From the IMG/VR virus record IMGVR_UViG_3300047281_000124: a stretch of DNA of 32,871 bases, one strand, 5' to 3'. The position numbers and the translations under genes are program-made. Each line of letters starts with the position of its first letter. Position 1 is the stretch's first letter. This stretch comes from a virus. Lineage: Duplodnaviria; Heunggongvirae; Uroviricota; Caudoviricetes. Positions 1,746-24,787 of this stretch are shown one piece after another. Below the pieces are notes generated by a model. That model had not been told where the DNA came from and did not search any database. It saw only the letters and a list, made by a program, of their open reading frames with translations.

Positions 1746-4700
1746 TTATCTCCTAATTAGTTGTGGCTGAGTTCCAAAAGTACCTTTTAAGGACTGTTGA
1801 ACACCAGAACCTACTCTATTAATTTCTCCAGCAACCATATCACCGACAGTTACTTCGATACGACGATTACCACGAGAGTCTTTAGTTTCTTTAGTAGTTG
1901 CAGTAGAAGTACTAAAGTTATTTACTACTACAGAAACTTCGTTACCACCTGAAGCACCTCCGCGAACACCTAAGTTACCTTGAGCATCACGTTTTAAAGG
2001 CATAATAGCCTCTGCACCAGCTTCACCCATTAAACCTGTTCCTTTTGCAAACTTGAATAAAGTTGGGGAATTTACAATGGAGTTAGTAAATGATCCGCCT
2101 TTAGCAAACTTCTGGATTCCGGAATCCCACGCGCCACCTTTTGCTTGGGGCATAGGGCCTACAAAGTTATCTGTTCCAGGAGTATACTGTGAACCTCCTG
2201 TTAAGGAGCTCATTAGTCCAGATAGACCTCTCGCACCTTTAAGTGACTCAGTTAATTGCATACGTAGTTCAAGTTTTGCTATACCAAGAAGCATATCAGT
2301 AATCATATCACCAAAACTTTGCTTACCTGTCATAGCAAAATCTATTAACGCATCAGACATACTACCTACAGAACTTTCGAAACTTGAATTAAATGCTTCC
2401 CATCGTTGACTTAGTTTTATATCAATTTGAGCTGTTTTCTCTTTGGCAGCCCCTAGATCAGCTATCCCAGTTTTCTCAAACTTATATCTAGTATCTAAAT
2501 CCAATAATTCCTGCTGTTTAGCTAACTTAGCATCACCATCTGCGATTTTTATAGCATTCTTAAGGGTTAAACTTTCTTTTTGGTATTTTATGTCTAACTC
2601 TGAGACACCGTTGGCCACTTCTCTTTTTCTAACTATAGTATCTAGCGATCTAATTTCAGAAGTATAAGAGTCTTGATTTATCTGTCCTAAATTTAGCTGT
2701 ATATCAAGCCTAGCTCTAGCTTGTTCGATTAAGGCACTACCTTGCTCATAATATTCTTTTGACAAAGCATTTTGGTTATCCAGTCCTTTTAGTTGTATAT
2801 CTAAAAGTCTGTTACTTATAATTTCAGCATCTGTACGTCTAGTAATAGCATTAGTTGTATCATTTGTTAAGTCTAAATTAGCTTCTGCGAGTTTTGTTTG
2901 AATTTGTGCATCTTTTAGTGCAGTACTTGCAAGACTTTTAAGTTCAGGAACTTTTGCCTCTTTTTGTACAGTAGCTGCGATACCTTCAGCTTTTTGATAG
3001 GGGATAAGCGTTAGAACTTTTTGAGCAGCCTGCTCTTTTCCAGTCATCTGTGTTAGAGTTTTTTGCTGTTCTACATCGCTTAAAGATTTAAACGCAGGGC
3101 TTTCTACTAAACTAGCTCGTTCTGTTTTTAATGACTCTAAGTATGATTGCATACCTTCTTTAAAAGTATCAAATCCTGCTGATATAATATTAGTTAAACC
3201 CGTAATTCTATCTCTCTCAGCAACTGTATTTAATTCTTGTAGTTTAGTTTGTAAATCAATATTGCGCTGTAGTAAAGCTATAGTTTCAGGATTGCTAGCT
3301 ATATCCCCTGATTTCAAGTCTTTGGCTAGATTTTTTGAACCTACTGCTTTTTCTTGCTCAGCAATACGTTTGATTTGAATATCTATCGCATCTCTAGCCT
3401 TTATATCTGGAACAGGTAATTCGTCCTTCTTTTTCTCTAAAGCCAGTCTTTCATTAGATAGTCTAAAGGCATCTAATGTATTAATTAAAGTATCAGTAGA
3501 TTTAAGTTGCTTAACTTGCAATCCAGTACTTTGCTGATCTAGTTTTGCGGAGTACGCAGCAGTTGCGGCGGTTTTAGGTAAACTATTAATCAAAGTTTTT
3601 TGTATCTCTATACTGCCCTTAGCTATAGCCAAGGTTAGTGGAGATTCTATTAACTTAAATGCAGACACTAATGAAGACCCCATAGCACTGCTCATATTTT
3701 GCTGTAAAGTGTTCAGCCTACTATTGGCCCCCTCTAGCTTAGTAGCCGCAGCAGCTACCTGTCCTTCTGCCTGTAACTTAATATTAATAAGAACTTGCTT
3801 TGTTTCTTTAGAAGTACCTAGAGAGTCTAATGCTTTAGAAGTATCTATGACCTTCTTTTCCGCATTTATTAGTTCTTGTTTTGTATCTTCTACTTGTTTG
3901 TATACTCCGGCCAACTGAGACCCTGTAGTTAAGATAGCCGCCTGAGCCTCTGGAGAAAACATTTTTATTTTACTAGTATCTAGCAGAAGCTCATTTAAGG
4001 CAGCAACACTTAAAATAGGGTTTTTAAATATATCCGCTAACTTAATGCTTTCTATAGCTAAGTCTGCGCCAAACTTACTTAGTGGGTCGTTGTTTATTAA
4101 AGTATTACTCAAAGCTGTGTAGGAATCGTTCAGTTTAGCTAAACCTGCGTTAAACTCTCGTAAAGGTGCAGCTAGTTTAGTGCTAGCTTTTTCTACTTCA
4201 GATAACTGCTTTGTCGCAGCCTTTCCAGTCGATACTACCTTACTACTATCAAGACTGTTAAAGGCTTTCTGTATATTTTGAAAACTAGTATCACCTATAT
4301 TAAGTAGTTCTTTTAGACTATCTTGAGCTTGTTTCTTTAATGCCGGGTCTGTAATACCTTCTATACTACTAGACAGTGCCATAGCTGTATTTTTTGCATA
4401 AAGGCTTTGCAAGTCTTTATCAACAAATTTATACGCAGTATCTAAAAGCCTGTCAAAGAAACTAGCGGATATGTCTGCTTTTTCTAAATTAGATGTCAGG
4501 CTTTCTAAGTTTTCTGTTAAAGTAGTTATGGCATTTGCTTTAGCAAGTATTGAAGAAACTGTTAAAGTATCTTCGTATTTTTTAGCAACATCTGTAGCTG
4601 TTTTTGTACTACTTTCTACTAACTCTATAGACTTTTGAAAGCTTTCTAACTCAGCCCCGTTCTTAGAAAAAACAGCGCTTAAAGCTCCAAAAACTGCTAC

Positions 4701-6314
4701 AGCCATACCAATGTAACCCATAAGGCCAGATGCTACGCTAAGTATTCCGCCTATAGAACTAGCGGCGGCAGCGGCGGTACCCGCTACTCTGACAAATCCT
4801 GCACTTAGGCCCGTTAATTTTTCTGCCTTTACAGATTCGTTCATTTTCTTTAGTGCTACAGAAAATCCGTCTATACCCACGTTTTCGCTTACACTACTTA
4901 GGATAGACCGAGAAGCTGCAGTTTTTCTAGCAGATTCTGCTCTTGCTATAGCAATACCTGCTGGAGTAAACTTTCCAGGAGGTGCGTCTCGTTTCTTCTC
5001 AAGAATATCCAAAGTTTTGGCATACTCAGTATTGGCATTTTTTGCTAAAGTAATACTTTTCGACAGCTCTCTATACGTACCTGCTACGGCTGTCTGTTTG
5101 CTACCTAATTTATCTAATAATGCTATATCTTTTGTAGTTATATCCTGTATAGACTCTTTGGCTAGGATTGTTTTAACACCCTTGGATATACCCTTTTTTG
5201 AAGTGGCTCTTAGGTCTGCCTCAGCAGCATCTACTTTCATAGTTCTAATATCGGCTATTTTTTCTTTTTCTGCTAGAATCTCTTTAGCACTTATGTCGGT
5301 CGCTACTTTTAGGGCCTGTTTAGCTGAAGTAGCGCGCGCTTCTGCAAACTTTTTAGCTTCCTCTGCCGATTCCTTTAGACTTGATCCGTACTGTCCAATA
5401 GCAGGAATAGCTTGTTTTAATAACATAATAGATATTGTAGACAAAGCTGCTGCCAATAAAGTAGGGCTAGTACCCAGTAACTTTATTAAGGGCCCTATCA
5501 CGGTATTAACTAATGTTAAGCCTGAGGTAGCAATGTCTTTTAATGATGCCAGTAGTTTTGTGTAAGGGTTAACGTCTATTTCAATATCTTTAAACTTACC
5601 AATACCCTCAGCTAGCACAGCATTAGTAAATGCCTGTCGTTTTTCAAGATCAGTTAAAGCTCCTACAGATTTTCCTATAGACCTTGCGTAGTCTTCCGTA
5701 GACTTACCTACTTTTGTAAATATACCTAATTCATCTAGTAGTTCTGGCTCTAGCTTAGTTATACCTCGGGTTAACCTACTTACAGCATCAGACATATCAA
5801 CACCTAAAGCCTGAGAAGCTTTTTTTGCTACCTCTCCTAGCTGTAAGAGCTGTTTGGCAGACATTCCAGAAGAGGTAGCTTTTGTAGTTGCTTCCATAGC
5901 TTCGCGTAAAGAAATGGCTCCACCACTTGCAGCTGTAAACTGTTTTGCTAAAGTTCCTAGAGCTGTTCCACTGGTAGCTCCAAGCTGGTCTAACCCTTTT
6001 ACCATGTTGGTGGTATCCGCAGCATTACTAAGTGCGGTGAACGCGGCACTAACTGCGAAAATGTTAGCAGCAAAGGTAGCGTACACACGTACTAAACCAC
6101 CTAAGCCTTCTGATTGTTTTGCAAAGTCGCGACCTGCGGCACCTGTACCGCCACTTGCGCGAGCTTGATCGTATCCCTGGTAGCTAGCTTTAACAGCTTT
6201 ACTAATACCAGCACTTTTTCCCATTTCATTATTAAACTGCTTGGCATCTGCCGTCTTAGCTTTAATACTGCCATTATCCTGTAATTCAACTGTATATACT
6301 GTCTTATTAGTCAT
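1746..6314 (-). CDS. Tape measure protein (about 1522 aa)
   Basis: Long Ala/Lys/Leu-rich helical ORF after the tail chaperones; T5 pb2-like N-terminus (GLGGLVRVYATFAANIFAVSAAF) and lambda-family C-terminus (GLMGEAGAEAIMPLKR); GGAG RBS before ATG 6314. Confidence 0.92.
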   Translation of the reverse strand: MTNKTVYTVELQDNGSIKAKTADAKQFNNEMGKSAGISKAVKASYQGYDQARASGGTGAAGRDFAKQSEGLGGLVRVYATFAANIFAVSAAFTALSNAADTTNMVKGLDQLGATSGTALGTLAKQFTAASGGAISLREAMEATTKATSSGMSAKQLLQLGEVAKKASQALGVDMSDAVSRLTRGITKLEPELLDELGIFTKVGKSTEDYARSIGKSVGALTDLEKRQAFTNAVLAEGIGKFKDIEIDVNPYTKLLASLKDIATSGLTLVNTVIGPLIKLLGTSPTLLAAALSTISIMLLKQAIPAIGQYGSSLKESAEEAKKFAEARATSAKQALKVATDISAKEILAEKEKIADIRTMKVDAAEADLRATSKKGISKGVKTILAKESIQDITTKDIALLDKLGSKQTAVAGTYRELSKSITLAKNANTEYAKTLDILEKKRDAPPGKFTPAGIAIARAESARKTAASRSILSSVSENVGIDGFSVALKKMNESVKAEKLTGLSAGFVRVAGTAAAAASSIGGILSVASGLMGYIGMAVAVFGALSAVFSKNGAELESFQKSIELVESSTKTATDVAKKYEDTLTVSSILAKANAITTLTENLESLTSNLEKADISASFFDRLLDTAYKFVDKDLQSLYAKNTAMALSSSIEGITDPALKKQAQDSLKELLNIGDTSFQNIQKAFNSLDSSKVVSTGKAATKQLSEVEKASTKLAAPLREFNAGLAKLNDSYTALSNTLINNDPLSKFGADLAIESIKLADIFKNPILSVAALNELLLDTSKIKMFSPEAQAAILTTGSQLAGVYKQVEDTKQELINAEKKVIDTSKALDSLGTSKETKQVLINIKLQAEGQVAAAATKLEGANSRLNTLQQNMSSAMGSSLVSAFKLIESPLTLAIAKGSIEIQKTLINSLPKTAATAAYSAKLDQQSTGLQVKQLKSTDTLINTLDAFRLSNERLALEKKKDELPVPDIKARDAIDIQIKRIAEQEKAVGSKNLAKDLKSGDIASNPETIALLQRNIDLQTKLQELNTVAERDRITGLTNIISAGFDTFKEGMQSYLESLKTERASLVESPAFKSLSDVEQQKTLTQMTGKEQAAQKVLTLIPYQKAEGIAATVQKEAKVPELKSLASTALKDAQIQTKLAEANLDLTNDTTNAITRRTDAEIISNRLLDIQLKGLDNQNALSKEYYEQGSALIEQARARLDIQLNLGQINQDSYTSEIRSLDTIVRKREVANGVSELDIKYQKESLTLKNAIKIADGDAKLAKQQELLDLDTRYKFEKTGIADLGAAKEKTAQIDIKLSQRWEAFNSSFESSVGSMSDALIDFAMTGKQSFGDMITDMLLGIAKLELRMQLTESLKGARGLSGLMSSLTGGSQYTPGTDNFVGPMPQAKGGAWDSGIQKFAKGGSFTNSIVNSPTLFKFAKGTGLMGEAGAEAIMPLKRDAQGNLGVRGGASGGNEVSVVVNNFSTSTATTKETKDSRGNRRIEVTVGDMVAGEINRVGSGVQQSLKGTFGTQPQLIRR

Positions 6315-6364
6315 CGTGTCTCCTAACCGTAGCAGAAACACACACGTATTTCTGAAGTACCCCT

Positions 6365-6393
6365 ATTATATCACATGGGGCTGCTTACGTCAA
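6365..6393 (-). promoter_or_regulatory. Sigma70-type promoter for the tape measure/tail-tip operon
   Basis: TTGACG-17 bp-TATAAT on the minus strand. Confidence 0.7.
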
Positions 6394-6413
6394 GTATAAT
6401 TTTTCATGGGCGT

Positions 6414-6445
6414 AAAAAAGCCCCGTATTTTCATACGAGGCTTTT
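6414..6445. terminator. Intrinsic terminator after the tail chaperone genes
   Basis: AAAAAAGCC-CCGTA...TACG-AGGCTTTT hairpin with A/T tracts on both sides. Confidence 0.7.
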
Positions 6446-6446
6446 A

Positions 6447-6815
6447 CTATTTACTTTTAGCTCTTAATATAGAACGTCTTTCATTATCTATAGTACTGAT
6501 TATCTTATATACTAAAATATGTTCATCTTTAGGTACGTCGTACAATTCAAATACTTGAAAAAGATTTAATAAGCTTTTTCCAATATAATTACCTCCCATA
6601 TAGTCCCACTCATCTCTAAGTGTTTCATATATAGTTAAGGATAATTGAGCAAGATCGGGCATATCCTCGAATTCCACAGGAATTTCGGAGTCTAATGGTT
6701 CACTTCCTAGAGCCGCACAGATTTCATAGTACTGCTCTTTAGAAACTCCCTGATCTGCATTATTTAGATAACTTTTAAGGTCAGCAGTTAGGCTTTCGAA
6801 CTGCTCTTGGAAAAG
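6447..6815 (-). CDS. Tail assembly chaperone C-terminal extension (gpT-like), reached by -1 frameshift
   Basis: The -1 frame is open from the slippery site at 6815-6821 to the stop at 6447 (LFQEQFESLTADLKSYL...EICAALGSEP...); predicted fusion about 255 aa. Confidence 0.75.
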   Translation of the reverse strand, partial: LFQEQFESLTADLKSYLNNADQGVSKEQYYEICAALGSEPLDSEIPVEFEDMPDLAQLSLTIYETLRDEWDYMGGNYIGKSLLNLFQVFELYDVPKDEHILVYKIISTIDNERRSILRAKSK

Positions 6816-7213
6816 TTTCCCAAGTCTGATACCACTTCTGATACAAATCCGTCAAAATCTGTTGAAGACTTCATAATAGCTAAAGCGTTATCTTCAGAGT
6901 ACTCTAATAGAGTTTCTGAGTCTTTACCACTTACATCAACAGGAGCTAGTTTTTCTAAGTAGGCATACTTAAAACCTGACCAGCCTTTTACGGTTGCTGC
7001 AACGTATAGTTTTAAGAACAGTTCATCGTCTAATTCTTCGACGGGTTGACGATTCTTAAATACAGTCTTAGTAGACTTTTTACGAATTGAAACTAAAGTT
7101 TCACGGGAAAGAAAAGTAAGCTTTACTTTGAAGCCTGGCATGCCAGGATATTCTGACTCTACTTCTTTTGAAGGTACAAGAAGAGACTTTAAGGAGATTG
7201 TGTTATCAGCCAT
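6788..7213 (-). CDS. Tail assembly chaperone (gpG-like)
   Basis: 141 aa between the tail tube and tape measure genes; ends in DLGNFSK containing the slippery heptamer. Confidence 0.85.
   Translation of the reverse strand: MADNTISLKSLLVPSKEVESEYPGMPGFKVKLTFLSRETLVSIRKKSTKTVFKNRQPVEELDDELFLKLYVAATVKGWSGFKYAYLEKLAPVDVSGKDSETLLEYSEDNALAIMKSSTDFDGFVSEVVSDLGNFSKSSSKA
6815..6821 (-). other. Programmed -1 ribosomal frameshift site G GGA AAC
   Basis: X XXY YYZ heptamer in the correct phase near the end of the chaperone gene; comparable to lambda G/GT GGGAAAG. Confidence 0.8.
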
Positions 7214-7234
7214 GTTATATATTATAAGTTAGTT

Positions 7235-7265
7235 AAAAAGAGGTACCGGTGATCAAGCCGGTACC
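7235..7265 (-). terminator. Probable terminator after the major tail gene
   Basis: 8-bp stem GGTACCGG/CCGGTACC followed by TCTTTTT on the minus strand. Confidence 0.55.
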
Positions 7266-7275
7266 GAGAGAAAGA

Positions 7276-8727
7276 TTACAGTGAAAAGTAACGAACTTCT
7301 AAGTCGTTAGTATTTTCAATATCATAGGTAGATGTAGCACTTTGAATAGCTTCAGTACCTTGTGCAGTAAAGTTAATTGTAGTTGACATAACTGCTTGAG
7401 CATCAATTGTAGGAATCTGTAAGAACGCACCGTCTGACATAATTTCTACACGAGTACCGCTTGCTGCGCCACCGATTTCAATTTGTAACTTAAACTTAGG
7501 CTCAACACCTGCAGTTGTTGCAGAATCAGCAAGTAATTGGCTAAGAAGTCCGGCACTGTTAGTACTACCTGTACGTAAGTAAGCTGTCATACTTCCGGAG
7601 ATAGCACGAGTACCTGTATAGTAACCAATAGCTAAGTTAACTACACCTAAGTTAGCGGGAGTAATATACGTAATATTATTAGCAATTGTAATAGAACCGC
7701 CAGTAAGTGCTAAGTTATAACTAGTACCACCTATACCACCAATGTTACTTTTCATAGTAACAGTAGACAGTTTGTTGGTAATAAAGTTAGCTGCAGTATT
7801 CTTACCAGTAGCAGTACCTGTTAACCCGCCAGTTAGTGTAAGAACCCCTGTACCTGTGTAAGATACGTTGGTTGCTAGCTGACGTAGTGCAGTACCTTTA
7901 CCGGTCCAGGCTACAGTAGCAATGCCATCTAGCCCAAAATCAACTACTGCTTGATCTAATGCACAGTTATCAATAACGTACGTAATACTGTCTACAGTAA
8001 TAACCATACCGAAAGGTAGTAGTAAGTTCTTATTGGAAGTAGCAGTAGTGACTTCAGAGTATGCAACAGGAATACCAGGTGTAGCTACTAAGTCGGCGGC
8101 TACGGCAATATTCTCATTCCAAGCAGTACGGTTAAAAGTTACTGCAGAAGTCCAGTTAGCGGCACTAACTGCGGCAGCAGGGTTAGTAGCATATATAGCT
8201 GTAATGCTAGTTGCGGAACTAGTCACGATTTTAACTGCGGTATTAAACTGACTTGCGCCAAGACCTAAAACACCTTTAACTACTACAGTTTCTCCAACTG
8301 TCATAGGAGTGAATCCGGTACCTGTTATCGTTACTAGACCAGCTACTAAAGTTACTGCTGTAATTGTTGTAGCTGCTGAAGCTGGGGTAGCTCCAATGGC
8401 TGTATTAGATAAAAGAGCATTCCAAAGGTGTGATTCTTCGGCTTTAACAGTAGCGTTTAAATATGGACGAATATACGTAGAGAATGAAAACTCTACATTA
8501 CCCAAACTAGTGTTAAAAGAGCGCTGACCACGAACAGGTGTAGCACCTGCTTCGCTGATATTGATTGTCTCAGCATTAGAAGATTGTGTAAAAGTAAACC
8601 CATCAAGTACTTGTAACTCTTGTGCGTTAGTAGCACTAAAGCCGCTAGTTGCTACAAGGCCTGTACCTGCTGAAACGTTTGTAGTAAATAAAACTCTACT
8701 ATTTCTAACTAGATTAAATGTTGCCAT
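7276..8727 (-). CDS. Major tail tube protein, T5 pb6-like, with an internal insertion
   Basis: LVRNSRV, ISEAGATPVRGQRSFNTSL and EFSFSTYIRPY match my recollection of T5 pb6 (LLRNTRI, VNEAGPRPTRGSKRFNDSL, WSFSTYILPY). Confidence 0.9.
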   Translation of the reverse strand: MATFNLVRNSRVLFTTNVSAGTGLVATSGFSATNAQELQVLDGFTFTQSSNAETINISEAGATPVRGQRSFNTSLGNVEFSFSTYIRPYLNATVKAEESHLWNALLSNTAIGATPASAATTITAVTLVAGLVTITGTGFTPMTVGETVVVKGVLGLGASQFNTAVKIVTSSATSITAIYATNPAAAVSAANWTSAVTFNRTAWNENIAVAADLVATPGIPVAYSEVTTATSNKNLLLPFGMVITVDSITYVIDNCALDQAVVDFGLDGIATVAWTGKGTALRQLATNVSYTGTGVLTLTGGLTGTATGKNTAANFITNKLSTVTMKSNIGGIGGTSYNLALTGGSITIANNITYITPANLGVVNLAIGYYTGTRAISGSMTAYLRTGSTNSAGLLSQLLADSATTAGVEPKFKLQIEIGGAASGTRVEIMSDGAFLQIPTIDAQAVMSTTINFTAQGTEAIQSATSTYDIENTNDLEVRYFSL

Positions 8728-8832
8728 TTGTCTATTCCTTTATTTTTATGTGTCTGTCGCATTTGACTAGATATTTATCTGTACGCATACTAAAGACACG
8801 ATTAATTAATAGACTATTAAGTCTACCTATAC

Positions 8833-9270
8833 TTACATCAGTTGATACCGTACCTGTAAGTTTATTTCACCAACAGCGTACGGGGCTAGTAAGCCCTCAT
8901 CTGTAGTTATGGAAGCTACTAAGATTTCAGTAGTTTCATAGTTTTTATCAATGTCATAGATTAAAACTCTGTTATCTGTAATAACAGTTTCAATGTCTTC
9001 TAATAATGCTTCTAGCTGTAGTTGAGCATCTTCGCCTTTACAGTACAGCTTAAGACTAATACCTAAGTATGCCCAGACGAAGTCGCCAGGTAAGTACTCT
9101 CTAGACTCAGAACCTGTTGACCCGTATATACACGGGAAATCATTAACTTCATCCCAGAAACGAATAATAGGATAAGCATTATTATAGATATTAATACTAT
9201 AAGGATCATTACCATCAATAAGCTTAAATTTTTCAACTAATGCTTTTAAAATACTTGTTCTACGACTCAT
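8833..9270 (-). CDS. Tail terminator protein (T5-like)
   Basis: 145 aa; FWDEVNDFPCIY and ITTDEGLLAPYAVGEINLQVRY motifs; directly upstream of the tail tube gene. Confidence 0.75.
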   Translation of the reverse strand: MSRRTSILKALVEKFKLIDGNDPYSINIYNNAYPIIRFWDEVNDFPCIYGSTGSESREYLPGDFVWAYLGISLKLYCKGEDAQLQLEALLEDIETVITDNRVLIYDIDKNYETTEILVASITTDEGLLAPYAVGEINLQVRYQLM

Positions 9271-10835
9271 ACTGATACTGCCCTTAATCTATTTCCAACC
9301 TTGGTTGCTGCGATTTCTCTAATTGATTTAGATATTAACAGTTTAGGGTCTCTTGTTTTTGGGGAACCCTGAGCGTACCCTGGTTCAAATGTTTGGTATG
9401 GGTTCTTCATATAATTATAAAAAGCTGTAATCATACCTGCTCTGCTCTGACTCATGCGCTCTACTTTAACTGACGCTGCGAAGCGTCCGGTTTGATAGTT
9501 TAGTATACTTCTACTGCTACCATCTCCCATATTAGCTGATATTACGTTCTGTAAGTTGTCATTAATTAAATTCTGTAAGTTAATTAATGAGTAAAGTTGT
9601 TGATTAGTACTCTTTATAGTAGATACTTTTAAGGAAGGCCTTTTACGGGCTTCTTTAAGTTTACTTATCTGTATTTTAGCAACTTTTAAGGCTTTATTAA
9701 TCTGACTAGTTATTTTATCAGTATCTTGATATTTAACTGTACTATTGAAGTTAGTAGTTATTGGATTTAAAGTTGGCTTACCTTCAAAAGCATTTTTTAA
9801 ACTAACTAACATAGATCTAGCTATACTGGGAGAGCCTTCGGTATTAATAAGGGTAGTAGCTAATACATTTAAAGATTGTGCATTAGAAAGTATGTCTTTT
9901 GCTAGCACGGCTCTTATAGGGTCTTTATTTATCTGTTTAGCTCTATTTATCAACATCTCTGATAAAGGTTTAAACGTAGATATAAACTGTTTAAAAGCCT
10001 TATCGGCATCAGTATTATTTAATGTTTGGCCCGTTAACTGAGCTAATAACTTATTTAGTCTATCTCCTGCTTGCGTTAACTGGTCTCCGGCAGCCTTATT
10101 ATCTTTCTTAAATTGTAGCTCTACTCTTAAATGAGGGTTACTAGAAAGCACCGTTTTAGAAGCTTTTATAAACACTTCTTCCTTATCAATTACATTACTA
10201 GTTAAGTAATCTGCATCCAATAAAGCTTTAATAATTATTTCTAAGGTTTGTTCGGTTTTTCCTGAAGTACCTTCTTTGCTACTAATAGTAAAATCTCTGT
10301 AGCGTTCTCCTGTAAAGGTAGCTGCTATAGGTAGATTTTTTAATATTTTAAGAGAGAATACACCGGCTAAGTGCCCAGACTCTATGTTCTCTGAAATGTA
10401 TTCGTATAGCTCGTGCCCTAGGGGGCCGTTATTTACAGATATAACAATCTCTATATACTGTAAAAATAGGTCTCTTAAAGTTTTTTGAGGAACTTTAGAT
10501 AGGTCAAACCCGCCTTCAAATTCTTGAATTTTGTTACCGTATGAAGAAGATTTAACAAAGCTTAAAAACTCCGCGTAATTAACTTTGCTAATTACAACTG
10601 CGGCATAGTCAGCTAGAGTAGCATTTTCTATACTTTTTTCTATACTTGATAATACACTAGATATACCACTTTGCGTAAACACAGAGCTAGCACCTGAAGT
10701 AGCACTCTCGTACTTTCTACGAATAGCTTTTGTATCTTGATCTTGAAGCGCTATAGCTTTTTGACTTCTAGACAGATTATTAAAGTCTGTAAACACCTTG
10801 TTTTTAAAAGTATCACTAAATTCTGCTAAACTCAT
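9267..10835 (-). CDS. Tail completion/neck protein with a long N-terminal extension
   Basis: C-terminal LNYQTGRFAASV...YNYMKNPYQTFEP...RDPKLLISKSIREIA resembles the T5 tail completion protein; synteny agrees; 522 aa. Confidence 0.65.
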   Translation of the reverse strand: MSLAEFSDTFKNKVFTDFNNLSRSQKAIALQDQDTKAIRRKYESATSGASSVFTQSGISSVLSSIEKSIENATLADYAAVVISKVNYAEFLSFVKSSSYGNKIQEFEGGFDLSKVPQKTLRDLFLQYIEIVISVNNGPLGHELYEYISENIESGHLAGVFSLKILKNLPIAATFTGERYRDFTISSKEGTSGKTEQTLEIIIKALLDADYLTSNVIDKEEVFIKASKTVLSSNPHLRVELQFKKDNKAAGDQLTQAGDRLNKLLAQLTGQTLNNTDADKAFKQFISTFKPLSEMLINRAKQINKDPIRAVLAKDILSNAQSLNVLATTLINTEGSPSIARSMLVSLKNAFEGKPTLNPITTNFNSTVKYQDTDKITSQINKALKVAKIQISKLKEARKRPSLKVSTIKSTNQQLYSLINLQNLINDNLQNVISANMGDGSSRSILNYQTGRFAASVKVERMSQSRAGMITAFYNYMKNPYQTFEPGYAQGSPKTRDPKLLISKSIREIAATKVGNRLRAVSV

Positions 10836-10837
10836 GA

Positions 10838-11464
10838 TTAATTATAACTCGCTGTATACAGATCCAATATACGTTTAATGTGTGCAGGAAGATTAGTGCT
10901 AGTAATATACTCTACTTGCATAGTATTAGGCTGAGCTAATTTATGAGTATGTACAGCTGAGTCATTCTTAATATAGTAAGCAATGAGATCAAGTACGGCT
11001 AACTTCAAGTCTTCTGGTAAGGTTTCGTAACCTGCGGTATATGTGATTCTGTATCCGTTAATAGCTTCTGGGAATATAGGGTTAGATCTGCTACCGTAAG
11101 GTACGTATCCTAATAATTCTGGTGGAGGGCTAGCTACTAAGATAGGTCTTAAGTTATTTTGTGTTTTAGATAGTACGAAGTTTACGTATTCTTCTAAGGG
11201 AGCATAATTAGCTCCGTAGTCTGAGGAGTACTCTACACTACTTATTGAAAGTACAGGAGTTTCGGAAAGTTCAATAGTATCAGAACCTCCTTCGCTGTAC
11301 TCTACTTTTGCTTCATCAATGTAATCAACAAAACTTCTACGGCAAACTGATTTTACTAGCTCGCTTACTTTTACTATTAATGAATCTATAGTTGTATCAC
11401 TAGTAGTACTAGAGATACCTTGATAGGCCTTATATTCTGCTCTTGTAACTAGTGGTAGTCCCAT
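10838..11464 (-). CDS. Head completion / head-tail adaptor protein
   Basis: Follows the capsid gene; ITYTAGYETLPEDLKLAVLDLIAYY and LPAHIKRILDLY motifs; AAAGGA RBS before ATG 11464. Confidence 0.75.
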   Translation of the reverse strand: MGLPLVTRAEYKAYQGISSTTSDTTIDSLIVKVSELVKSVCRRSFVDYIDEAKVEYSEGGSDTIELSETPVLSISSVEYSSDYGANYAPLEEYVNFVLSKTQNNLRPILVASPPPELLGYVPYGSRSNPIFPEAINGYRITYTAGYETLPEDLKLAVLDLIAYYIKNDSAVHTHKLAQPNTMQVEYITSTNLPAHIKRILDLYTASYN

Positions 11465-11507
11465 ATTTATTCCTTTATCTTTTAAATAGGCTGCTCGCAA
11501 CCTATTT

Positions 11508-11531
11508 AAAAGATGGGACCGAAGTCCCATC
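11508..11531 (-). terminator. Intrinsic terminator after the major capsid gene
   Basis: GATGGGAC-TTCG-GTCCCATC-TTTT on the minus strand. Confidence 0.78.
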
Positions 11532-11555
11532 CTTAAGTATTTACTTAATCAAAGA

Positions 11556-13451
11556 TTAAGCAGCCCATTTCATTGTAGCAACACCTTGACCGAGATTGGT
11601 AGCAATCTGAGTCATACCGGTACGCAAGCTAGCAACTAGAACACGACGTTGTGTTTCCACAAGTTCTTGTGTATCCATACGTAGACCGCGTTGGTTACCA
11701 ACGATAAAGTTAGGAGTATACACTGCAAGAGCACCGTATGCGCCAGTAGCTTGAGCTGGAAGTTCAGCAGAAACCAACACTGGAGAATTACCAACTTGAC
11801 CGATTTGACCAGTTAGCAATGTAGCTTGTACACCAACTTGGTTCATTGTCTGGAAAGAGGTATCTTCTAGCAAATTGTAGTACATTTCTGTAGATACGAT
11901 AAAAGTCACGTCTTGTGGGTCAAGACCTAAAGCACCTAGGGCTTTACGTAGAGCACGTAGGCTAGCAACGCTAGTAACGGCACCAGAAGCGATAGAAGCA
12001 GTAGTATTTGCAGCAGCTACACCAGTTGTGTAAGTTGCAAGACCTTTAACAGGGTCAGCACCAGCACCAGCACCTAGCAAGAATGCTTTGTCGATAGCGC
12101 GAGCTGTACGACGAACCATTGCATCACGAACGATAGGCATAAGAGCGATCAAGCTATCTTCTTCTTCTTCGTAAGCCATATATTCGTTGGTAGCAACTTT
12201 ATAAGCATTCAAAGTGATTTCTTTAACTTGGTGAACAGCAGTATTACCTGCGCTAGCACCAGTAGCAAACTGAGCGTTAGTAACCCAAGTTGCGTAACCA
12301 GCTTCTGGGTTCACTGGGATTGTCATAACGTTTGTCTGCATAGCAACGTTACGTAGCAATGGAGAAACGATCAACTTACGACGAACTTCAGCTTCCATAG
12401 CCATAGAAACTTCAAGTTCCCATGTAGCGGAAGGCAAGTGAGCGCCAGTTTTTTCCAATAGTTGACGACCAAATTTGGTGTCTTGGATTGACTTGCCAGT
12501 AATGCGTGAAAGGATAACAGCTTTTTCTTTGTCAGCGTAGCTAACTTCAGCAGTTTTGCCATCAGCGAAAGTCATTTTGGACTTTTGCATAGCTTCGATT
12601 TCAGCAGCTTTTTCAGTTAGAGCAGCTTGTAGGCCGTCTAAAACTGACTTAGTGCTTGCAGCTTGAGTAGCGAAGCGAGCTTCGACTTCAGCCATCAATT
12701 TGTCAGCACCAGTAGTGCTTGGAGTAGCAAGAGCAACAGCTGCCTTGATACGAGCCTGAACGTCAGCTTCTTGAGCATCGGCTAGGGATTTAGCAGTTGC
12801 CTGGTCAGCAAGAGCTTTAGCAGTAGCATCAGCTACCAATTGTTTAATTTCGTCTTGGGTCATTTCGACTTCCTTCTGTGATTTGCTGTTTACGTCCGTA
12901 GAGGAATCTAGCCCTTTAGCTGAGTCGCTTTTGGGTGCAAACTGCGATTTAAAATTGTTGTACTCATCAGCATCTGAAAATGCTTTAGACAAACTAAAAA
13001 GAGTATTCTGGTTGCAAGGAACTGATACAACTGATATTTCTACCAGTTCCAATTCTTTAACAACAAAAAGCTCTGCTACAGCATTATATTCAGCATCAAT
13101 AATTCTGAATCCAACGCTAAATGCGGTTACTACTTCGTCTTTTACTAAACTAAAGATTTCAGACGCAGCTGAAATCCGGGCTTTAATCCAAAGACCTTTT
13201 CCATCAATCTTATGCTCAATCATGCGTCCGATAGGATCATCGTGGTCATGTTGCGCTAGAATGATAGGGTTCTTAAGATAGTTCTTAATGCCCGCTTCCC
13301 ATACACTAGTAGGGATAACATCGTTTGATCTATCTACATCGTTAGTACTTGCGTAACCTTCGATAAAGATAGAGTCAATCTTATCACCTGCAGCAGGAAG
13401 CTCTTTAGCAGTAAAAGTACTATTTACAAATAATACTTTATTTTTACTCAT
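11556..13451 (-). CDS. HK97-family prohead protease fused in frame to the major capsid protein
   Basis: N-terminal IEGYAST, VDRSND, HDHDDPIG, AFSVGF and LVEISVVSVPCN motifs; then a coiled-coil scaffold and an HK97-fold capsid region (IPVNPEAG, EITLNAYKVAT); single 631-aa ORF. Confidence 0.93.
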   Translation of the reverse strand: MSKNKVLFVNSTFTAKELPAAGDKIDSIFIEGYASTNDVDRSNDVIPTSVWEAGIKNYLKNPIILAQHDHDDPIGRMIEHKIDGKGLWIKARISAASEIFSLVKDEVVTAFSVGFRIIDAEYNAVAELFVVKELELVEISVVSVPCNQNTLFSLSKAFSDADEYNNFKSQFAPKSDSAKGLDSSTDVNSKSQKEVEMTQDEIKQLVADATAKALADQATAKSLADAQEADVQARIKAAVALATPSTTGADKLMAEVEARFATQAASTKSVLDGLQAALTEKAAEIEAMQKSKMTFADGKTAEVSYADKEKAVILSRITGKSIQDTKFGRQLLEKTGAHLPSATWELEVSMAMEAEVRRKLIVSPLLRNVAMQTNVMTIPVNPEAGYATWVTNAQFATGASAGNTAVHQVKEITLNAYKVATNEYMAYEEEEDSLIALMPIVRDAMVRRTARAIDKAFLLGAGAGADPVKGLATYTTGVAAANTTASIASGAVTSVASLRALRKALGALGLDPQDVTFIVSTEMYYNLLEDTSFQTMNQVGVQATLLTGQIGQVGNSPVLVSAELPAQATGAYGALAVYTPNFIVGNQRGLRMDTQELVETQRRVLVASLRTGMTQIATNLGQGVATMKWAA

Positions 13452-13464
13452 TGTGCTCCTTTAA

Positions 13465-14658
13465 TCAAGGTTTAGGTACCTCTGGTTTCTTTGGGGCACC
13501 ACCTAATGCTGGATTAACAGCCGAGCCCGCAATGTTAGCCGGTATACGTAGATCATCATTCCCCGGTTTAGGGTCGTAACGTAATTCTAATCTAGCTTCA
13601 TTAGCAGAAATAATTCCACCATTAACTAGGGTTGTATTGTAAGCTGCTACATCTTTAAGCTCAGGCTGTAGAGCCGAGACGTTAGAAGTTATAGCATCAA
13701 TATCATATCCAAAATATCTTTCCATAGCGGAAGTGTATTTACGAATAATTGGCATAATTGTTTCTAGGTAGAACAAACGCATATTCGGAGAAATATTCGC
13801 ATTGTTACCGCCATCTAATAATAAACTAGGTACACCTAGTGCTTTTAGAATTTTTATATCATGAGACTTAATAGAGTTATCAAAATCCATATCTTGAAAA
13901 CTTGCATTAAGTAGATTACTAGGTTTTAAGCCTGAATCTAGGATCATTGGCTTTCTAGCACCATTTTTAGGGCTATAACCAGCAATCCAGTTTTGTATTG
14001 TTTTTTGCTTAGATACTTGACTCAGCGTATTTTCTGTAGTCAATACCATACCAGGTACAGCACCATTCTCGAAGAAGGTTTCTTGAAATGCTTGCATCTT
14101 ATACAAGATTTCAATTGATCTGTTAGCTGATAGAAGTCTAGAACTACCACGGTAGATAGAACGGCTGCAAGTATCTCTAATATGTATAATTTCATTAGGC
14201 TTGAAGTCCTGCATGTTATTATACTTATACCCTGCGATAAATGTCTTTGCATCCGGTAAAATCTGCATATTTGCAGAAGGCAGATGATATAAGAAAGCAC
14301 CATCAAAGTAGATAAAGATATTACCTTCTAAGATAAAATCTGTAAATATACTTGCACGAAAATCTTGTACACTTTGATAAGGGTTAGGTCTAAAGTTTAG
14401 TAAGGTAGCTAACGTCTTTTGACGCATACCTGGACTAATATCGGAGGCAATCTTATCTTTAATATCAAAGTCTAAACTAGCGCAACCTGATACAATCATA
14501 GTAGTACCACGATTGACAGACTCTAGTTTTTCAAATGAAGTTCTATAATTTGCAGGAGCATGTGAGCCTACAATTATACCTTCTTGTCGAAGGATTATTT
14601 CTTGAGCCGGGTTTAATTTTTCTTTAAACCAGTTACTCGCATTATTATACCAAGCCAT
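13465..14658 (-). CDS. Portal protein (HK97/T5-like)
   Basis: LNFRPNPYQS, FILEGNIFIY, FFENGAVPGMVL and ISANEARLEL motifs; upstream of the protease-capsid gene. Confidence 0.93.
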   Translation of the reverse strand: MAWYNNASNWFKEKLNPAQEIILRQEGIIVGSHAPANYRTSFEKLESVNRGTTMIVSGCASLDFDIKDKIASDISPGMRQKTLATLLNFRPNPYQSVQDFRASIFTDFILEGNIFIYFDGAFLYHLPSANMQILPDAKTFIAGYKYNNMQDFKPNEIIHIRDTCSRSIYRGSSRLLSANRSIEILYKMQAFQETFFENGAVPGMVLTTENTLSQVSKQKTIQNWIAGYSPKNGARKPMILDSGLKPSNLLNASFQDMDFDNSIKSHDIKILKALGVPSLLLDGGNNANISPNMRLFYLETIMPIIRKYTSAMERYFGYDIDAITSNVSALQPELKDVAAYNTTLVNGGIISANEARLELRYDPKPGNDDLRIPANIAGSAVNPALGGAPKKPEVPKP

Positions 14659-15246: not shown

Positions 15247-15828
15247 ATGACATCAGGAATATATCAGTTAAACTTCGCAGACCAAGCCTATTACATTGGT
15301 CAATCACAGGACATGGAAACTCGGTGGAAGCAGCACGCTGATAAGTTTCTTAAAGGCAAAGCTGCCGCTAAAATGCAAGATGCCTACAATCAACTGGGTA
15401 TGCCTCATGCTGGTATAGTTATCGAGTGTCATAAAGACTACCTAGACATTATGGAGACATTTTACATCCATGACCAGAAACAGTATGCTAACTGTCTTAA
15501 TACGTCGGCACCTGCGCTTGACCCTAGTATTGACTATGAGTGGCTATTTCAGCATAGACATATGCTAAAGTTTTCATCTGCTGAAATTATTAAGGAATTT
15601 GTTGGAGTAGTTAAAGAGAATAATAAGCTACAAGAAGATCACGATGATCTAAAACATAGCTTTAATAAAGAGTATCTACTTCATAAAGCTGCCGCAGAAC
15701 TAAAACACGGCAAAGACGAAAACGAGCAGCTAGTAAAAAAGTACCACGATCGACTTCGTAACGCTCAGGAGAAAGTTACGAAACTTCTTAATCGTGGTCT
15801 CTTTGATAGGCTATTTAACCACCAATAG
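15247..15828 (+). CDS. GIY-YIG nuclease with a C-terminal coiled coil
   Basis: SGIYQL...YYIGQS...RWKQH N-terminus; antisense to the late operon and overlaps the terL stop region. Confidence 0.8.
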   Translation: MTSGIYQLNFADQAYYIGQSQDMETRWKQHADKFLKGKAAAKMQDAYNQLGMPHAGIVIECHKDYLDIMETFYIHDQKQYANCLNTSAPALDPSIDYEWLFQHRHMLKFSSAEIIKEFVGVVKENNKLQEDHDDLKHSFNKEYLLHKAAAELKHGKDENEQLVKKYHDRLRNAQEKVTKLLNRGLFDRLFNHQ

Positions 15829-20533: not shown

Positions 20534-21016
20534 ATGGAAAACACACAAAACCCCCAAAAAAAGCGTCTCGCAATCTATGACATGGACGGCACAATTGTGT
20601 GCAGCTTGCACCGCTATCGGACAATTGACGACAAAATTGATTTACAATTTTGGCGTGAAAATGAAAAATTCGCAATGGCTGATTCCCTACTGCCTTTGGC
20701 TGAACAATATCAGGCTGATTTGAAAGACCCTTCATGCTATGTGGTTATTGCCACTGCTCGGGTTTTGCACAATGCAGACGACCAATTTATTAATGAAATT
20801 TTGGGAAAGCCAAACGCTATTATCTCACGCAAGGACGGGGATTCTCGCTCAGGCGGTTTGCTTAAAATTTTGGGGTTGAAACAACTTTTTAACCTTAAAC
20901 AGTTTAGGGGCATTAAAGACATTGTTTTTTATGAGGATAATACGTCTTACTTAAAAGCGGTTTGCGATTATTTCAATATTCGCGGTGTATACATTCCAAG
21001 CAAGCAAGGCCATTAA
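20534..21016 (+). CDS. dmp: HAD-family deoxynucleoside-5'-monophosphatase (T5 Dmp-like)
   Basis: DMDGTIVCSLHR, DSLLPL, IATARVL and FYEDN correspond to my recollection of T5 Dmp (DLDGTIINSFHR, DTLLPL, ICTARLM, MIDDH). Confidence 0.75.
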   Translation: MENTQNPQKKRLAIYDMDGTIVCSLHRYRTIDDKIDLQFWRENEKFAMADSLLPLAEQYQADLKDPSCYVVIATARVLHNADDQFINEILGKPNAIISRKDGDSRSGGLLKILGLKQLFNLKQFRGIKDIVFYEDNTSYLKAVCDYFNIRGVYIPSKQGH

Positions 21017-22888: not shown

Positions 22889-22952
22889 GTGCTATCATTT
22901 TGATAGCACTGCTGGCGCCAAAATTATACCACATAATTTTGGGCCGTGTCAA
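22889..22952. repeat. Regulatory cassette copy 5
   Basis: GTGCTATCATTTTGATAGCAC, then CCAAAATTAT-ACCAC-ATAATTTTGG and TGTCAA. Confidence 0.85.
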
Positions 22953-23214
22953 GTTATTTATAACTTATTTTTTGTAGGGTTGTTTTGACGCAACAGTCGC
23001 AATTTGGGCGCGCCGGCTATTTTGTGACTGTTGGGTCACTTTCTGCACTTTAGGGTCAGAATTTGAACTTTCCGGTTTTTGAACTGCTATCATTTTGGGA
23101 GCAACCACCTGCAAAAAGCACCCCTAAAAGGGGCGCCAGTGCTAATCCTAAATTTTTCAAGTGCAAAATATGCCGCGCGCATATGCGCCTAGTGCCGCGT
23201 CTAAATTTTTATAT

Positions 23215-23263: not shown

Positions 23264-23380
23264 ATGATGGATATGTTTGAAATGGCTTTTTTCTATGGCG
23301 ATTACTCATCGCTACCAACGTCTGATGAACTATTTGAAAATATCGGTGGTACCAACGTACCTCTCGAAATTGTTGATTAA
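23264..23380 (+). CDS. Small acidic peptide (38 aa)
   Basis: Hand translation MMDMFEMAFFYGDYSSLPTSDELFENIGGTNVPLEIVD; GGGAGA RBS and its own promoter. Confidence 0.55.
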   Translation: MMDMFEMAFFYGDYSSLPTSDELFENIGGTNVPLEIVD

Positions 23381-23397
23381 GGAATAAAAATTTACAT

Positions 23398-23426
23398 TTG
23401 CACTAAGAGTTCCCAAGTGTTATAAT
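23398..23426 (+). promoter_or_regulatory. Promoter driving an ORF-free structured transcript
   Basis: TTGCAC-17 bp-TATAAT with an extended TG. Confidence 0.7.
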
Positions 23427-23444
23427 TATTGTAAGAAACGGGTA

Positions 23445-23557
23445 ATCTTCTGATGAGGTCTGACCCTAAACTGTAGCCGTTATCGCAATCGCCCAGAGCA
23501 TAACAATAGTGCGTATCATACAGTTTTAAACAAGACCGAAACTCTAGGCGTCGGGAT
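23445..23557 (+). ncRNA. Candidate type I hammerhead ribozyme with an extended stem II
   Basis: ATCTT-CTGATGA-GGTCT...AGACC-GAAAC-TCTAGGC-GTC-GGGAT; stem II continues with AAACTGTA/TACAGTTT; stems I and III are weak. Confidence 0.45.
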
Positions 23558-23941
23558 GGTTTCGCTGATTACTCAAACTAATCACAACCATTGCAGCTTA
23601 GGGTCAAGATAGGGAGTATAAAGGTAACCCTTACGGGAGCCGGAAAGCTGCTATCTAGTCAGCACTTTCAATGGATACATTGATCTTAATACGTAGTAAA
23701 GGCCTGCGTTGTTAGCGAACTAAAACTAGAGAAAGAACTTTGAAATACAGCTATAGTATAATTATCAGTACCCGAGACTTGATCTCGGAGTGTGGGAGAG
23801 TTACCCACTAGCGCATCCGTCATAAATCTAGGTAGTGTTGACGTATCTACTAGCGGTGGGGCTTAGCTTTAATTCGCCCTCGTGTCGCAATCTCACGTTA
23901 ATAAGATTAAAAATTGAGGAGTCGCTATCCAACGTTCAAAT

Positions 23942-23975
23942 ACCCGCTTAGTTCATGACTGTGCGGGTTTTGTTT
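23942..23975 (+). terminator. Probable terminator ending the structured transcript
   Basis: ACCCGC/GCGGGT stem with inner AGT/ACT pairs, then TTTTGTTT. Confidence 0.55.
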
Positions 23976-24058
23976 GGTCTGTACCCGTCACCTCCAAGTT
24001 TTTAAGTGCGCCTAGTGCTGCGCCAGTGTTAAACCTAAATTTTTTGACGTGCTGCGCC

Positions 24059-24087
24059 ATTATAAGTGTTACAACGAAGTTTGTCAA
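24059..24087 (-). promoter_or_regulatory. Leftward consensus promoter with no downstream ORF
   Basis: TTGACA-17 bp-TATAAT on the minus strand. Confidence 0.7.
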
Positions 24088-24210
24088 GTGTATTTTTACT
24101 GTCTGACCCTAAGTTAACGCAATCTAGAGCATTTGACCCTAAACTACAACAATTTGATGCGATTTGGGCACTTTGGCGACTTATTGCAGCTTAGGGTCAG
24201 ATAGACGAAG

Positions 24211-24242
24211 AAAAGCCTACTTAATATGACTTAAGTAGGCTT
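24211..24242 (-). terminator. Terminator of the first early operon
   Basis: 12-bp perfect stem AAGCCTACTTAA/TTAAGTAGGCTT with a T tract on the minus strand. Confidence 0.75.
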
Positions 24243-24385
24243 ATTTTGAGTTGTAGCTGCAGTTTAGGGTCTGGCACCGTAGTTAAGAGGCAAAAAACGC
24301 ACTTGCTTAAATTGCGGTGGTACACGTCCAGAAATTTTTATGGAACAGAATTTTTGGTACGTGGCACCGTAGTCGTTTTTCTAGT

Positions 24386-24787
24386 CTAATATTTCAGCAA
24401 AGGATCAGTAAAGTAATTAGTGGATACGGTATTTAATCCTGCTAATTGTTGTGCGCGCTCTTGTACTGGATCTACCGTCAACCTCTTCTCAATAAGTGCA
24501 AGAACGGATTTATTGACCTTTTCCAAGCTTTCGAGGATTTCTGCATTCACGTCTAAGAGCTTAGCGATGCGTTCGATGTATTCTTCCTTTTTAATAGGTA
24601 CTTCACCGCGTTTAGTCAAGTATTCCTTCTTACGGTACACACCTAGTGAGCTAAGCTTCGCTATAATTGAACGATCCGGTACTGGTTCGCCGTGGCTTAG
24701 GGTCATCATTGCAGAGATTTCTGCTACTGTTTTACCTGACTCGTAGTCAGCAATTAGTTTTTGGGTTATTTCTTTATCGTATTTCAT
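24386..24787 (-). CDS. A2/D3-like DNA-binding protein, diverged third paralogue
   Basis: LIADYESG, RSIIAKLSSLGVY..K.Y.TK.GE..IKKE and ESLEKVNKSVL align with both A2-like ORFs. Confidence 0.65.
   Translation of the reverse strand: MKYDKEITQKLIADYESGKTVAEISAMMTLSHGEPVPDRSIIAKLSSLGVYRKKEYLTKRGEVPIKKEEYIERIAKLLDVNAEILESLEKVNKSVLALIEKRLTVDPVQERAQQLAGLNTVSTNYFTDPLLKY

Follow-up and report, generated by a model that had tools for sequence, protein, structure and literature searches.

A candidate type I hammerhead ribozyme with long, conserved stem II and stem III insertions in the injection-stop-like gap of a freshwater T5-like phage lineage

The window analysed here, i.e., the whole 32,871-nucleotide stretch of the IMG/VR virus record IMGVR_UViG_3300047281_000124 (Caudoviricetes), was found in freshwater metagenomes and contains a gap free of open reading frames (ORFs) at 23381-24385, with small plus-strand genes on one side and minus-strand genes on the other. 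Within this gap, a promoter is followed, about 10 nt past the transcription start predicted at ~23433-34, by a plus-strand element at 23445-23610, whose identity as a hammerhead ribozyme is well supported by comparative sequence analysis. An earlier note on the same DNA had proposed a hammerhead ending at 23557; the element extends to 23610, since both a structural scanner and the relatives place stem III and stem I there. The large terminase (TerL) of the window has about 400 relatives in IMG/VR with 67-85% identity, and the nearest cultured phages belong to the Demerecviridae (T5 family), with a TerL 48% identical. Neither the non-coding region nor the structural genes had a nucleotide match in INPHARED, and ARAGORN detected neither tRNA nor transfer-messenger RNA (tmRNA) genes in the window. 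The promoter and the parts of the ribozyme are as follows:

23397-23426, plus strand: sigma-70-type promoter, TTTGCA, 18-nt spacer and TG-extended TATAAT at 23421-26 (consensus scan, 10 of 12 matches plus the TG)
23445-49, plus strand: 5' strand of stem I, AUCUU, partner of 23606-10 (structural scanner and homologues)
23450-56, plus strand: core strand C3-A9, CUGAUGA (CUGAYGA in 13 of 13 homologues, only the free N7 varies)
23457-23537, plus strand: stem II, GGUCU (23457-61) with AGACC (23533-37), then an internal loop
inside 23457-23537, plus strand: distal part of stem II, a AAACUGUA/UACAGUUU helix and a distal GUUAU/AUAAC hairpin
23538-41, plus strand: core G12-A13-A14 with A15.1, GAAA, invariant in 13 of 13 homologues; A23541 pairs with U23604
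23541-49, plus strand: 5' strand of stem III, ACUCUAGGC, 9 bp with 23596-604
23550-95, plus strand: 46-nt insertion closing stem III, in predicted folds an irregular hairpin (AUGGUU/AACCAU, GAUUA/UAAUC, loop CUCAAAC)
23596-604, plus strand: 3' strand of stem III, GCUUAGGGU, followed by C17 (C23605)
23603-05, plus strand: cleavage triplet GUC (GUC in 11 homologues, GUA in 2)
23606-10, plus strand: 3' strand of stem I, AAGAU, which would form the 5' end of the downstream product

The topology is that of type I, with stem I open and stems II and III closed by loops, and the order along the RNA is the 5' strand of stem I, the core, the stem II hairpin, GAAA, the stem III hairpin, H17 and the 3' strand of stem I. 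All features by which a hammerhead is recognised at the level of sequence and secondary structure are present: the C3-A9 strand, GAA with the A15.1-U16.1 pair, an NUH triplet, three covarying helices and the G10.1-C11.1 pair. The scissile bond is most likely C23605/A23606, as predicted from this structure. Stem II is unusually long, as the earlier note had remarked, with 81 nt overall and an insertion of 71 nt, and it holds one copy of a dispersed motif (UCUGACCCUAAACUG). The sequence motifs listed in that note were all confirmed at their places (CTGATGA at 23450-56, GGTCT at 23457-61 with AGACC at 23533-37, GAAAC at 23538-42, GTC at 23550-52 and GGGAT at 23553-57), together with the stem II extension AAACTGTA/TACAGTTT and the GTTAT/ATAAC hairpin inside stem II. 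The same holds for the position just after a promoter, whose TGnTATAAT -10 box at 23418-26 lies 24 nt before CUGAUGA.

The scanner, which demanded the core, at least 4 bp of stem II, GAAA, at least 4 bp of stem III, UH and at least 3 bp of stem I, matched exactly once when both strands of the window were scanned; this match, at 23450-23605, has helix lengths of 5, 5 and 9 bp. Under these loose criteria 0.027 matches were obtained per dinucleotide-preserving shuffle of the window (n=300), while the observed 5/5/9 bp helix lengths were reached in 0 of 300 shuffles.

A blastn search of the gap against the loci of the relatives identified L049 as carrying a homologue of 23440-23609 with 74% identity, and L046 a partial homologue; in their alignment CUGAYGA, GAAAC and both stem II helices were kept and compensation was seen in two changes (U-A replaced by C-G, and A-U by G-C), with a clean 33-nt deletion of distal stem II in L046. 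A search of IMG/VR blind to the core, which used the 17-mer pattern GGTCYGACCCTAAACTG from stem II only with the catalytic core excluded, returned true homologues, every one of which had CUGAYGA upstream and GAAAC downstream. In L017/L082 a long stem III (CCCUCUA...UAGAGGG-U-A) was evident, after which came a fully matching partner for stem I. The scanner also matched syntenically in ten relatives (L016, L017, L041, L042, L046, L049, L055, L062, L063 and L083), which together with L037 and L072, found by a covariance model, brings the syntenic hammerheads to 12 relatives. Another group of 50-nt scanner matches (L022 and L031-L035) was rejected as false positives, being located downstream of TerL and having a "stem II" without a loop. 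Exactly one hammerhead copy was present in each of two complete relatives (124 and 128 kb). The covariance model, R1, had been built from five short relatives only, with the window left out and just the three core helices given; searched against 725 kb, it located the window element on the plus strand at 23442-23613 with 34.4 bits and an E-value of 4.3e-6.

The helices were formed by sequences unrelated among the relatives, both in stem II (GUUUC/GAAAC, GCUGA/UCAGC, GCUUA/UAAGC, GCACA/UGUGC, GCCCA/UGGGC) and in stem III (CCCUCGGG/CCUGAGGG, CUUCCAGG/CCUGGAGG, CCCCCA/UGGGGG). In the 12-sequence R1 alignment 94.8% of the pair cells were paired, compared to 74% after column shuffling of the 3' partners and 22-50% when the partners were slid by 1-3 columns, and 13 of the 18 pairs had changes on both sides. 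Since this alignment had been fitted to R1, the pairs were also tabulated in a core-anchored manner for 13 sequences. The core nucleotides were invariant except for N7, with H17 being C in 11 sequences and A in 2; the core conservation among related phages, on which the earlier note had staked its prediction beforehand, was thus found in all 13 homologues. The G10.1-C11.1 pair (G23457-C23537) was GC in 13 of 13, stem II positions 2-5 covaried (GC/CG/UA/AU), and one additional U stood between A9 and G10.1 in L049, L046, L017 and L083. Stem III had 8-10 bp in every homologue, with A15.1-U16.1 and C15.2-G16.2 invariant and compensatory changes in five of its nine pairs; stem I pairs 1-3 were formed in all 13, with UA/AU and UA/CG swaps, the stem being 3-5 bp long in the relatives. 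The helix ends were sharp, position 6 of stem II being paired in 0 of 13, position 6 of stem I in 1 and position 10 of stem III in 2. U.G wobbles (e.g., at III.3, in 6 of 13) fit only a plus-strand RNA, so that the plus strand is the RNA strand.

The peripheral parts varied more freely. Stem II opened into an internal loop or a loop 5 bp in from the core in all homologues, and no covarying stem I partner was found for it; distal parts of stem II were cleanly deleted in L046, L017 and L083 and replaced by a 17-nt hairpin in eight relatives. Stem III carried insertions in all relatives, its whole span ranging from 54 to 103 nt. The tip of its distal hairpin showed a recurring 7-nt loop, C-U-N-N-N-A-A, resembling an anticodon loop: CUCAAAC at 23573-79 in the window, CUCCCAA in L046, L049 and L037, and a CUCCCAA-type loop in most relatives. 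In G001 and G002 this loop is CUUUCAA, like the anticodon loop of the adjacent tRNA-Glu.

The rarity in shuffles, the homologues, the R1 match and the covariation bear out the hammerhead identity claimed by the earlier note, and the fold, its conservation and its covariation are the directly shown parts of this interpretation. Taken as a whole, the best explanation is that plus-strand positions 23445-23610 encode a genuine hammerhead ribozyme of type I, with a proposed self-processing function; we give this explanation a probability of about 85%.

The geometry proposed previously was different: a minimal type I hammerhead with a stem III of 2 bp, stem I formed by AUCUU/GGGAU, a cut after 23552 and probable dimerisation via a self-complementary UCUAGG loop. 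All its motifs are present in the window in correct order, and a relaxed scan for this geometry hit the window once and 0 of 100 shuffles, a rarity resulting mostly from the core and stem II that both geometries share. The relatives, however, make it very improbable. None of the short ones has this layout; L046, L017 and L083 lack, at the corresponding alignment position, the GUC (23550-52) proposed as cleavage triplet; and in L049 stem I reads ACCCU/GCGAU with two non-compensated mismatches, while the loop palindrome is lost (CCUAAGCC). The self-pairing of ACUCUAGGCGU leaves three mismatches in register, and the alternative 9-bp stem III covaries, in contrast to the 2-bp form, which was not conserved. 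With a conserved stem III of 8-10 bp no dimer is needed. On the extended geometry the predicted cut moves 53 nt downstream, after C23605, the released 5' piece would be ~172 nt (~23434-23605) instead of ~120 nt, and the hairpin at 23556-23591, thought to protect the downstream RNA, becomes the distal stem III and would remain on the 5' fragment.

The gap itself is injection-stop-like according to its gene layout and repeats, matching by position a region of T5 (AY543070) in which the injection stop signal gap (9140-10149) comes after plus-strand first-step genes and before minus-strand genes. The earlier placement at the end of a T5-like first-step region agrees with this layout; the annotated injection stop signal of T5 likewise lies between plus- and minus-strand gene blocks. 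Both regions are non-coding gaps of at least 1 kb between plus-strand genes (of the first step in T5, and probably also in the window) and minus-strand early genes, and both are dense in short repeats, although the repeats differ: GTGCAAATCCGACA in T5 and GACCCTAA in the window. In T5 (L090) the stretch 9740-10500 contained about 10 copies of GTGCAAATCCGACA, as well as TTTTTAAATGAGAATCATT repeats and the DnaA-box-like GTTGATAAC; no RNA product is annotated in the T5 region. R1 found no hammerhead in T5 1-14000 or in the locus of Vibrio phage 70E37.1, the nearest cultured relative, so the ribozyme belongs to the metagenomic lineage.

The dispersed motif CAGYTTAGGGTCR gave 26 matches in the window (at most two mismatches) against 5.5 expected. 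It occurred at about 20 sites on both strands (e.g., 9343, 13568, 17652, 17689, 22827, 23050, 23469, 23598, 24112, 24142, 24191, 24264, 24697, 25402, 25833, 26274 and 26498), most copies being either plus-strand and left of ~26.7 kb or minus-strand and right of 22.8 kb. The 6.8-kb locus L001, with a matched protein sharing only 35% identity with that of the window, also contained six copies, often immediately before a -35 box or a start codon. The motif may serve as a DNA site for a phage protein. Trans-cleavage of the dispersed UUAGGGUC copies by the ribozyme was considered and rejected, as stem III is an intramolecular hairpin which remains closed after cleavage and is not made of the motif in L055, L063, L083 and L017.

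This abundance on both strands, the presence of the motif in stem II and in the 3' strand of stem III in the window, and the short repeats filling the T5 injection-stop region would all suit a DNA-level element, in which protein-binding inverted repeats of GACCCTAA only happen to resemble a hammerhead. Such an element would not explain, however, why eight relatives retain the hammerhead with a motif-free stem II, nor why in L055, L063, L083 and L017 a non-motif stem III keeps its pairing by double changes. Furthermore, the U.G wobbles would turn into A.C mismatches if the opposite strand or a DNA cruciform were the paired form, an invariant unpaired core with variable helices is a signature of RNA, and a generic type I hammerhead model made from the relatives recognises the element. 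We therefore attach hardly any probability to the DNA-level explanation and consider the locus further as that of a hammerhead RNA.

Downstream of the ribozyme the gap continues as a predicted non-coding RNA with the following features:

23606-23975, plus strand: predicted 3' cleavage product of ~370 nt with a 5'-OH, containing no plus-strand ORF of at least 40 aa and bounded by a conserved terminator
23728-23813, plus strand: structured three-way-junction domain, P1 hairpin with loop AAAGAA, single-stranded AAAUACA
23771-88 and 23794-806, plus strand: domain helices P2 and P3, respectively, with a long-range helix GCUA (23750-53)/UAGC (23809-12)
23943-75, plus strand: intrinsic terminator, CCCGC (23943-47) and GCGGG (23963-67), then UUUUGUUU

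The terminator of the window aligns with a conserved GUUCAAAAGCCCC...GGGGCUUUUGUUUU block of the relatives, and the downstream order is common to all of them: a variable RNA, an intrinsic terminator, a consensus promoter on the minus strand and a motif-flanked bidirectional terminator. In the window the minus-strand promoter, of perfect consensus and conserved in the relatives, is at 24087-24059 and is aimed at the terminator of the hammerhead RNA; since that terminator is bidirectional in the relatives, a short antisense RNA of ~110 nt is predicted. The bidirectional terminator at 24213-24242, flanked by an inverted pair of the dispersed motif, is also conserved in the relatives. The sequence CCCGUCACC is present at ~23983-91, just past the intrinsic terminator.

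The junction domain, hitherto undescribed, had no match in Rfam. Its two covarying hairpins are separated by (G/U)AAUGU, and a scan with the domain pattern hit 63 IMG/VR stretches, of which about 33 are genuine (L130, L131, L137, L177, L183, L201, L203, L217, L225, L228, L232, L249, L253, L259, L263, L265, L247, L017 and others). RNAalifold with 21 domain sequences gave 21 pairs, 15 of them with changes on both sides, and the long-range GCUA/UAGC helix is replaced by GCCG/CGGC in L017. The idea of a permuted tmRNA, with GCU-AUC-AUC-UAA as the tag frame and prompted also by a stretch in L017 resembling a T-arm, acceptor strand and CCA, was rejected: the GCCG in L017 is compensated by CGGC 60 nt downstream, so the GCU stretch is a helix strand, and the absence of a tmRNA call by ARAGORN also speaks against it. 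In 26 of the 32 loci with enough upstream sequence a hammerhead was located 64-222 nt upstream of the domain, an association that is frequent but not obligatory. The downstream RNA is a more novel object than the hammerhead. Contigs from RNA libraries of three freshwater studies, which cannot show ends, strand or expression level, covered the stretch from 23648/23653 to 23758-23930, overlapping the domain, at a mean depth of 14-372 and the stretch 23265-23536 at a depth of 2-4, none of them covering or bridging 23537-23647; they weakly suggest accumulation of the downstream RNA but not of the ribozyme-bearing piece.

The upstream surroundings were more variable. The complete relative G002/L095 has a TTGAAT/TGTATAAT promoter directly upstream of the hammerhead. 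A tRNA-Glu(UUC) precedes the hammerhead at L037:3235-3310(-), L072:2363-2438(-), L094:802-876(+) and L095:1681-1756(-); its CCA end abuts stem I of the hammerhead in L037 and L072, while the distance is ~70 nt in G002 and ~625 nt in G001. Most other relatives have before the hammerhead a conserved 5' domain with two covarying hairpins, which is absent from the window. It is located ~50-110 nt upstream in L041, L042, L046, L049, L055, L062, L063, L083, L037 and L072, and consists, in order, of GGUGUUAUGAG, a variable hairpin, AUAACAACUUGAU and a covarying hairpin with the loop CGAA..CUCUAG. Right past the predicted cut site of L017 (~440-480, minus strand) there is a stretch resembling the 3' third of a tRNA, with a T-arm (GGUGG-UUCGAAC-CCACC), an acceptor strand (CCCGUCA), a discriminator and CCA, for which no matching 5' acceptor strand was found.

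Elsewhere in the window, a minus-strand promoter with perfect TTGACA/TATAAT is present at 22952-22923 within a 40-nt cassette (22914-22953), of which almost every TerL relative has several copies per locus, 85-97% identical. A GIY-YIG endonuclease-like ORF (15247-15828, plus strand) adjoins the large terminase gene on the opposite strand, and a 631-aa ORF (11556-13451, minus strand) matches families of head maturation proteases as well as of major head proteins. A link between a polynucleotide kinase and the 5'-OH end was dropped, because the PHROG match at 20534-21016 was weak.

From this arrangement we infer a catalytically active RNA with defined ends and a purpose, as follows. The sigma-70 promoter at 23397-23426 would drive transcription, with stems II and III forming as they emerge from the polymerase. 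Once AAGAU (23606-10) had paired with AUCUU (23445-49), the 2'-OH of C23605 would attack the next phosphate, leaving a ~172-nt 5' piece, which would comprise the triphosphate leader and the entire ribozyme and end in a 2',3'-cyclic phosphate, and a 3' product of ~370 nt extending from A23606 with its 5'-OH to the terminator at 23943-75. The ribozyme would thus be a self-processing module trimming the leader (in the relatives, an upstream tRNA-Glu or the 5' domain) off a conserved structured non-coding RNA, which would obtain a defined 5'-OH end and be expressed from an injection-stop-like region. Such self-processing, or 5' trimming, is the most likely purpose that the arrangement suggests.

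The predicted folds are largely consistent with this scheme. Both the minimum free energy (MFE) fold and the centroid fold contained the stem III helix, and for the segments 23434-23605 and 23434-23612 the MFE structure reproduced stems II and III exactly; in a 192-nt context (23434-23625) the hammerhead fold, when fully constrained, was only 3 kcal/mol above the MFE. Several observations nevertheless weigh against a self-processing hammerhead. Stem I is only 5 bp long and AU-rich in the window, and no tertiary contact between stems I and II was identified, so that rapid cleavage at cellular Mg2+ is not assured. The folding energy was no better than that of shuffles (z -0.43 for 23434-23625 and -0.2 for 23445-23557), and a competing 13-nt pairing of 23461-73 with 23594-606 might make the cleavage site inaccessible. 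The junction domain was missing within 330 nt downstream in many hammerhead-bearing relatives, so the 5'-maturation role cannot be the whole story. The RNA contigs began at 23648-53 and not at 23606, positions that are not readable as RNA ends. Finally, Rfam detected no hammerhead either at the gathering score on the window or at E<=10 on 23300-24500, which weighs little for the reasons given below.

The competing pairing and the short stem I helices are also what might be expected of a real fold that is slow or switched, with cleavage set by the stem II insertion and its motif copy, by the competing helix or by a bound factor, and acting as a regulated processing or decay switch instead of a constitutive 5' trimmer. 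The alternative 13-nt helix is 92% complementary and also possible in L049 and L046, the stem II and III insertions are large, conserved and bear the recurring CUCCCAA-type loop, and regulated cleavage has been proposed for slow phage hammerheads (PMC3088659). On the other hand, the competing helix is impossible in L017, L055 and L063 and weakened in L083, the hammerhead stems are favored in the co-transcriptional MFE structures, and no ligand- or protein-binding element was identified. This makes a switch unlikely, though less so than the minimal or the DNA-level explanations, and a constitutively acting self-processing hammerhead remains preferred.

The Rfam hammerhead models, suggested earlier as a check, gave no match at the gathering score, yet this is an insensitive test and a matter of detection, not of what defines a hammerhead. 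The same search also found no hammerhead in seven relatives, and on short relatives and examples Rfam reached only 12.9-20.8 bits. R1 was also run on 80 other IMG/VR loci retrieved by a generic core-plus-stem-II pattern, where it scored 109 hammerheads, many of them compact 55-70-nt copies in arrays, the compact canonical phage hammerheads obtaining 40-60 bits. When six such loci were searched with Rfam at the gathering score, none of the compact hammerheads (including those of L127, L167 and L111) was reported, only a twister-P5. Since Rfam also misses the compact phage hammerheads, its silence on the window element is uninformative. The curated models thus miss hammerheads with long stem II and III insertions and, at the gathering score, the compact phage ones as well, and because of this phage ribozymes are likely under-counted. 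The twister-P5 ribozyme lies at L154:1188-1246(-) beside hammerheads, in a phage contig unrelated to the window, and two further unrelated IMG/VR phage contigs, L127 and L167, contain nine compact type I hammerheads each.

A more far-reaching proposal would treat the locus as two modules, with the hammerhead processing a ~370-nt 5'-OH RNA whose three-way-junction domain (AAAUACA-GCUA...UAGC) marks a new and abundant class of phage non-coding RNA acting early in infection, either in taking over the host or in pausing and resuming DNA entry; we regard this as tentative and rather doubtful. Phage hammerheads have been known since 2011, with their role there still largely open, and the freshwater T5-like lineage presents a clean case: one copy per ~125-kb genome, in a fixed place right after a strong promoter and usually upstream of a conserved structured RNA seen at high depth in environmental RNA libraries. 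The single copy, fixed place, promoter and downstream structured RNA make the purpose of a phage hammerhead directly testable here.

Among the known systems, the synthetic 5' insulators of the RiboJ type have a hammerhead right after the promoter, which removes a variable leader and leaves a 5'-OH. The order of promoter and hammerhead is the same in the window, whose element, in contrast, is natural, has a non-coding RNA downstream and a function that is predicted only. The newt satellite and avocado sunblotch viroid (ASBVd) contain minimal or dimeric hammerheads whose stem III has 2-3 bp. These have a type I or type III core, and a comparably short GAAAC...GUC arrangement can be drawn in the window but is not conserved. 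The mammalian discontinuous hammerhead has a very large loop (PMC3088659) and likewise combines a canonical core with tolerance of a very large insertion in one helix; the window element differs from it by insertions of 46-71 nt that are themselves conserved hairpins, by its bacteriophage host and by its type I topology.

The closest counterparts are the hammerheads of phages and prophages, already described and thought to process long transcripts (Perreault et al., 2011, PMC3088659), the function of which is still termed unresolved (PMC3088659; PMC6765202). The window element has in common with the phage type I hammerheads (PMC3088659; Rfam clan CL00010, Hammerhead_1 RF00163) the canonical core, three helices, NUH triplet and open stem I, as well as the phage genomic context and the presumed cutting of long transcripts (PMC3088659). 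It differs in size, the known ones having 55-70 nt in contrast to 85-158 nt in the window lineage, owing to a stem II of 81 nt here and a stem III span of 54-103 nt; in copy number, with arrays flanking genes in the former and one copy per genome in the latter; in location, between protein genes as opposed to a fixed syntenic non-coding gap; and in being undetected by the Rfam models. Compared with the known family, what is new here are the conserved long insertions, the single copy, the fixed T5-like gap and the frequent coupling to a structured RNA.

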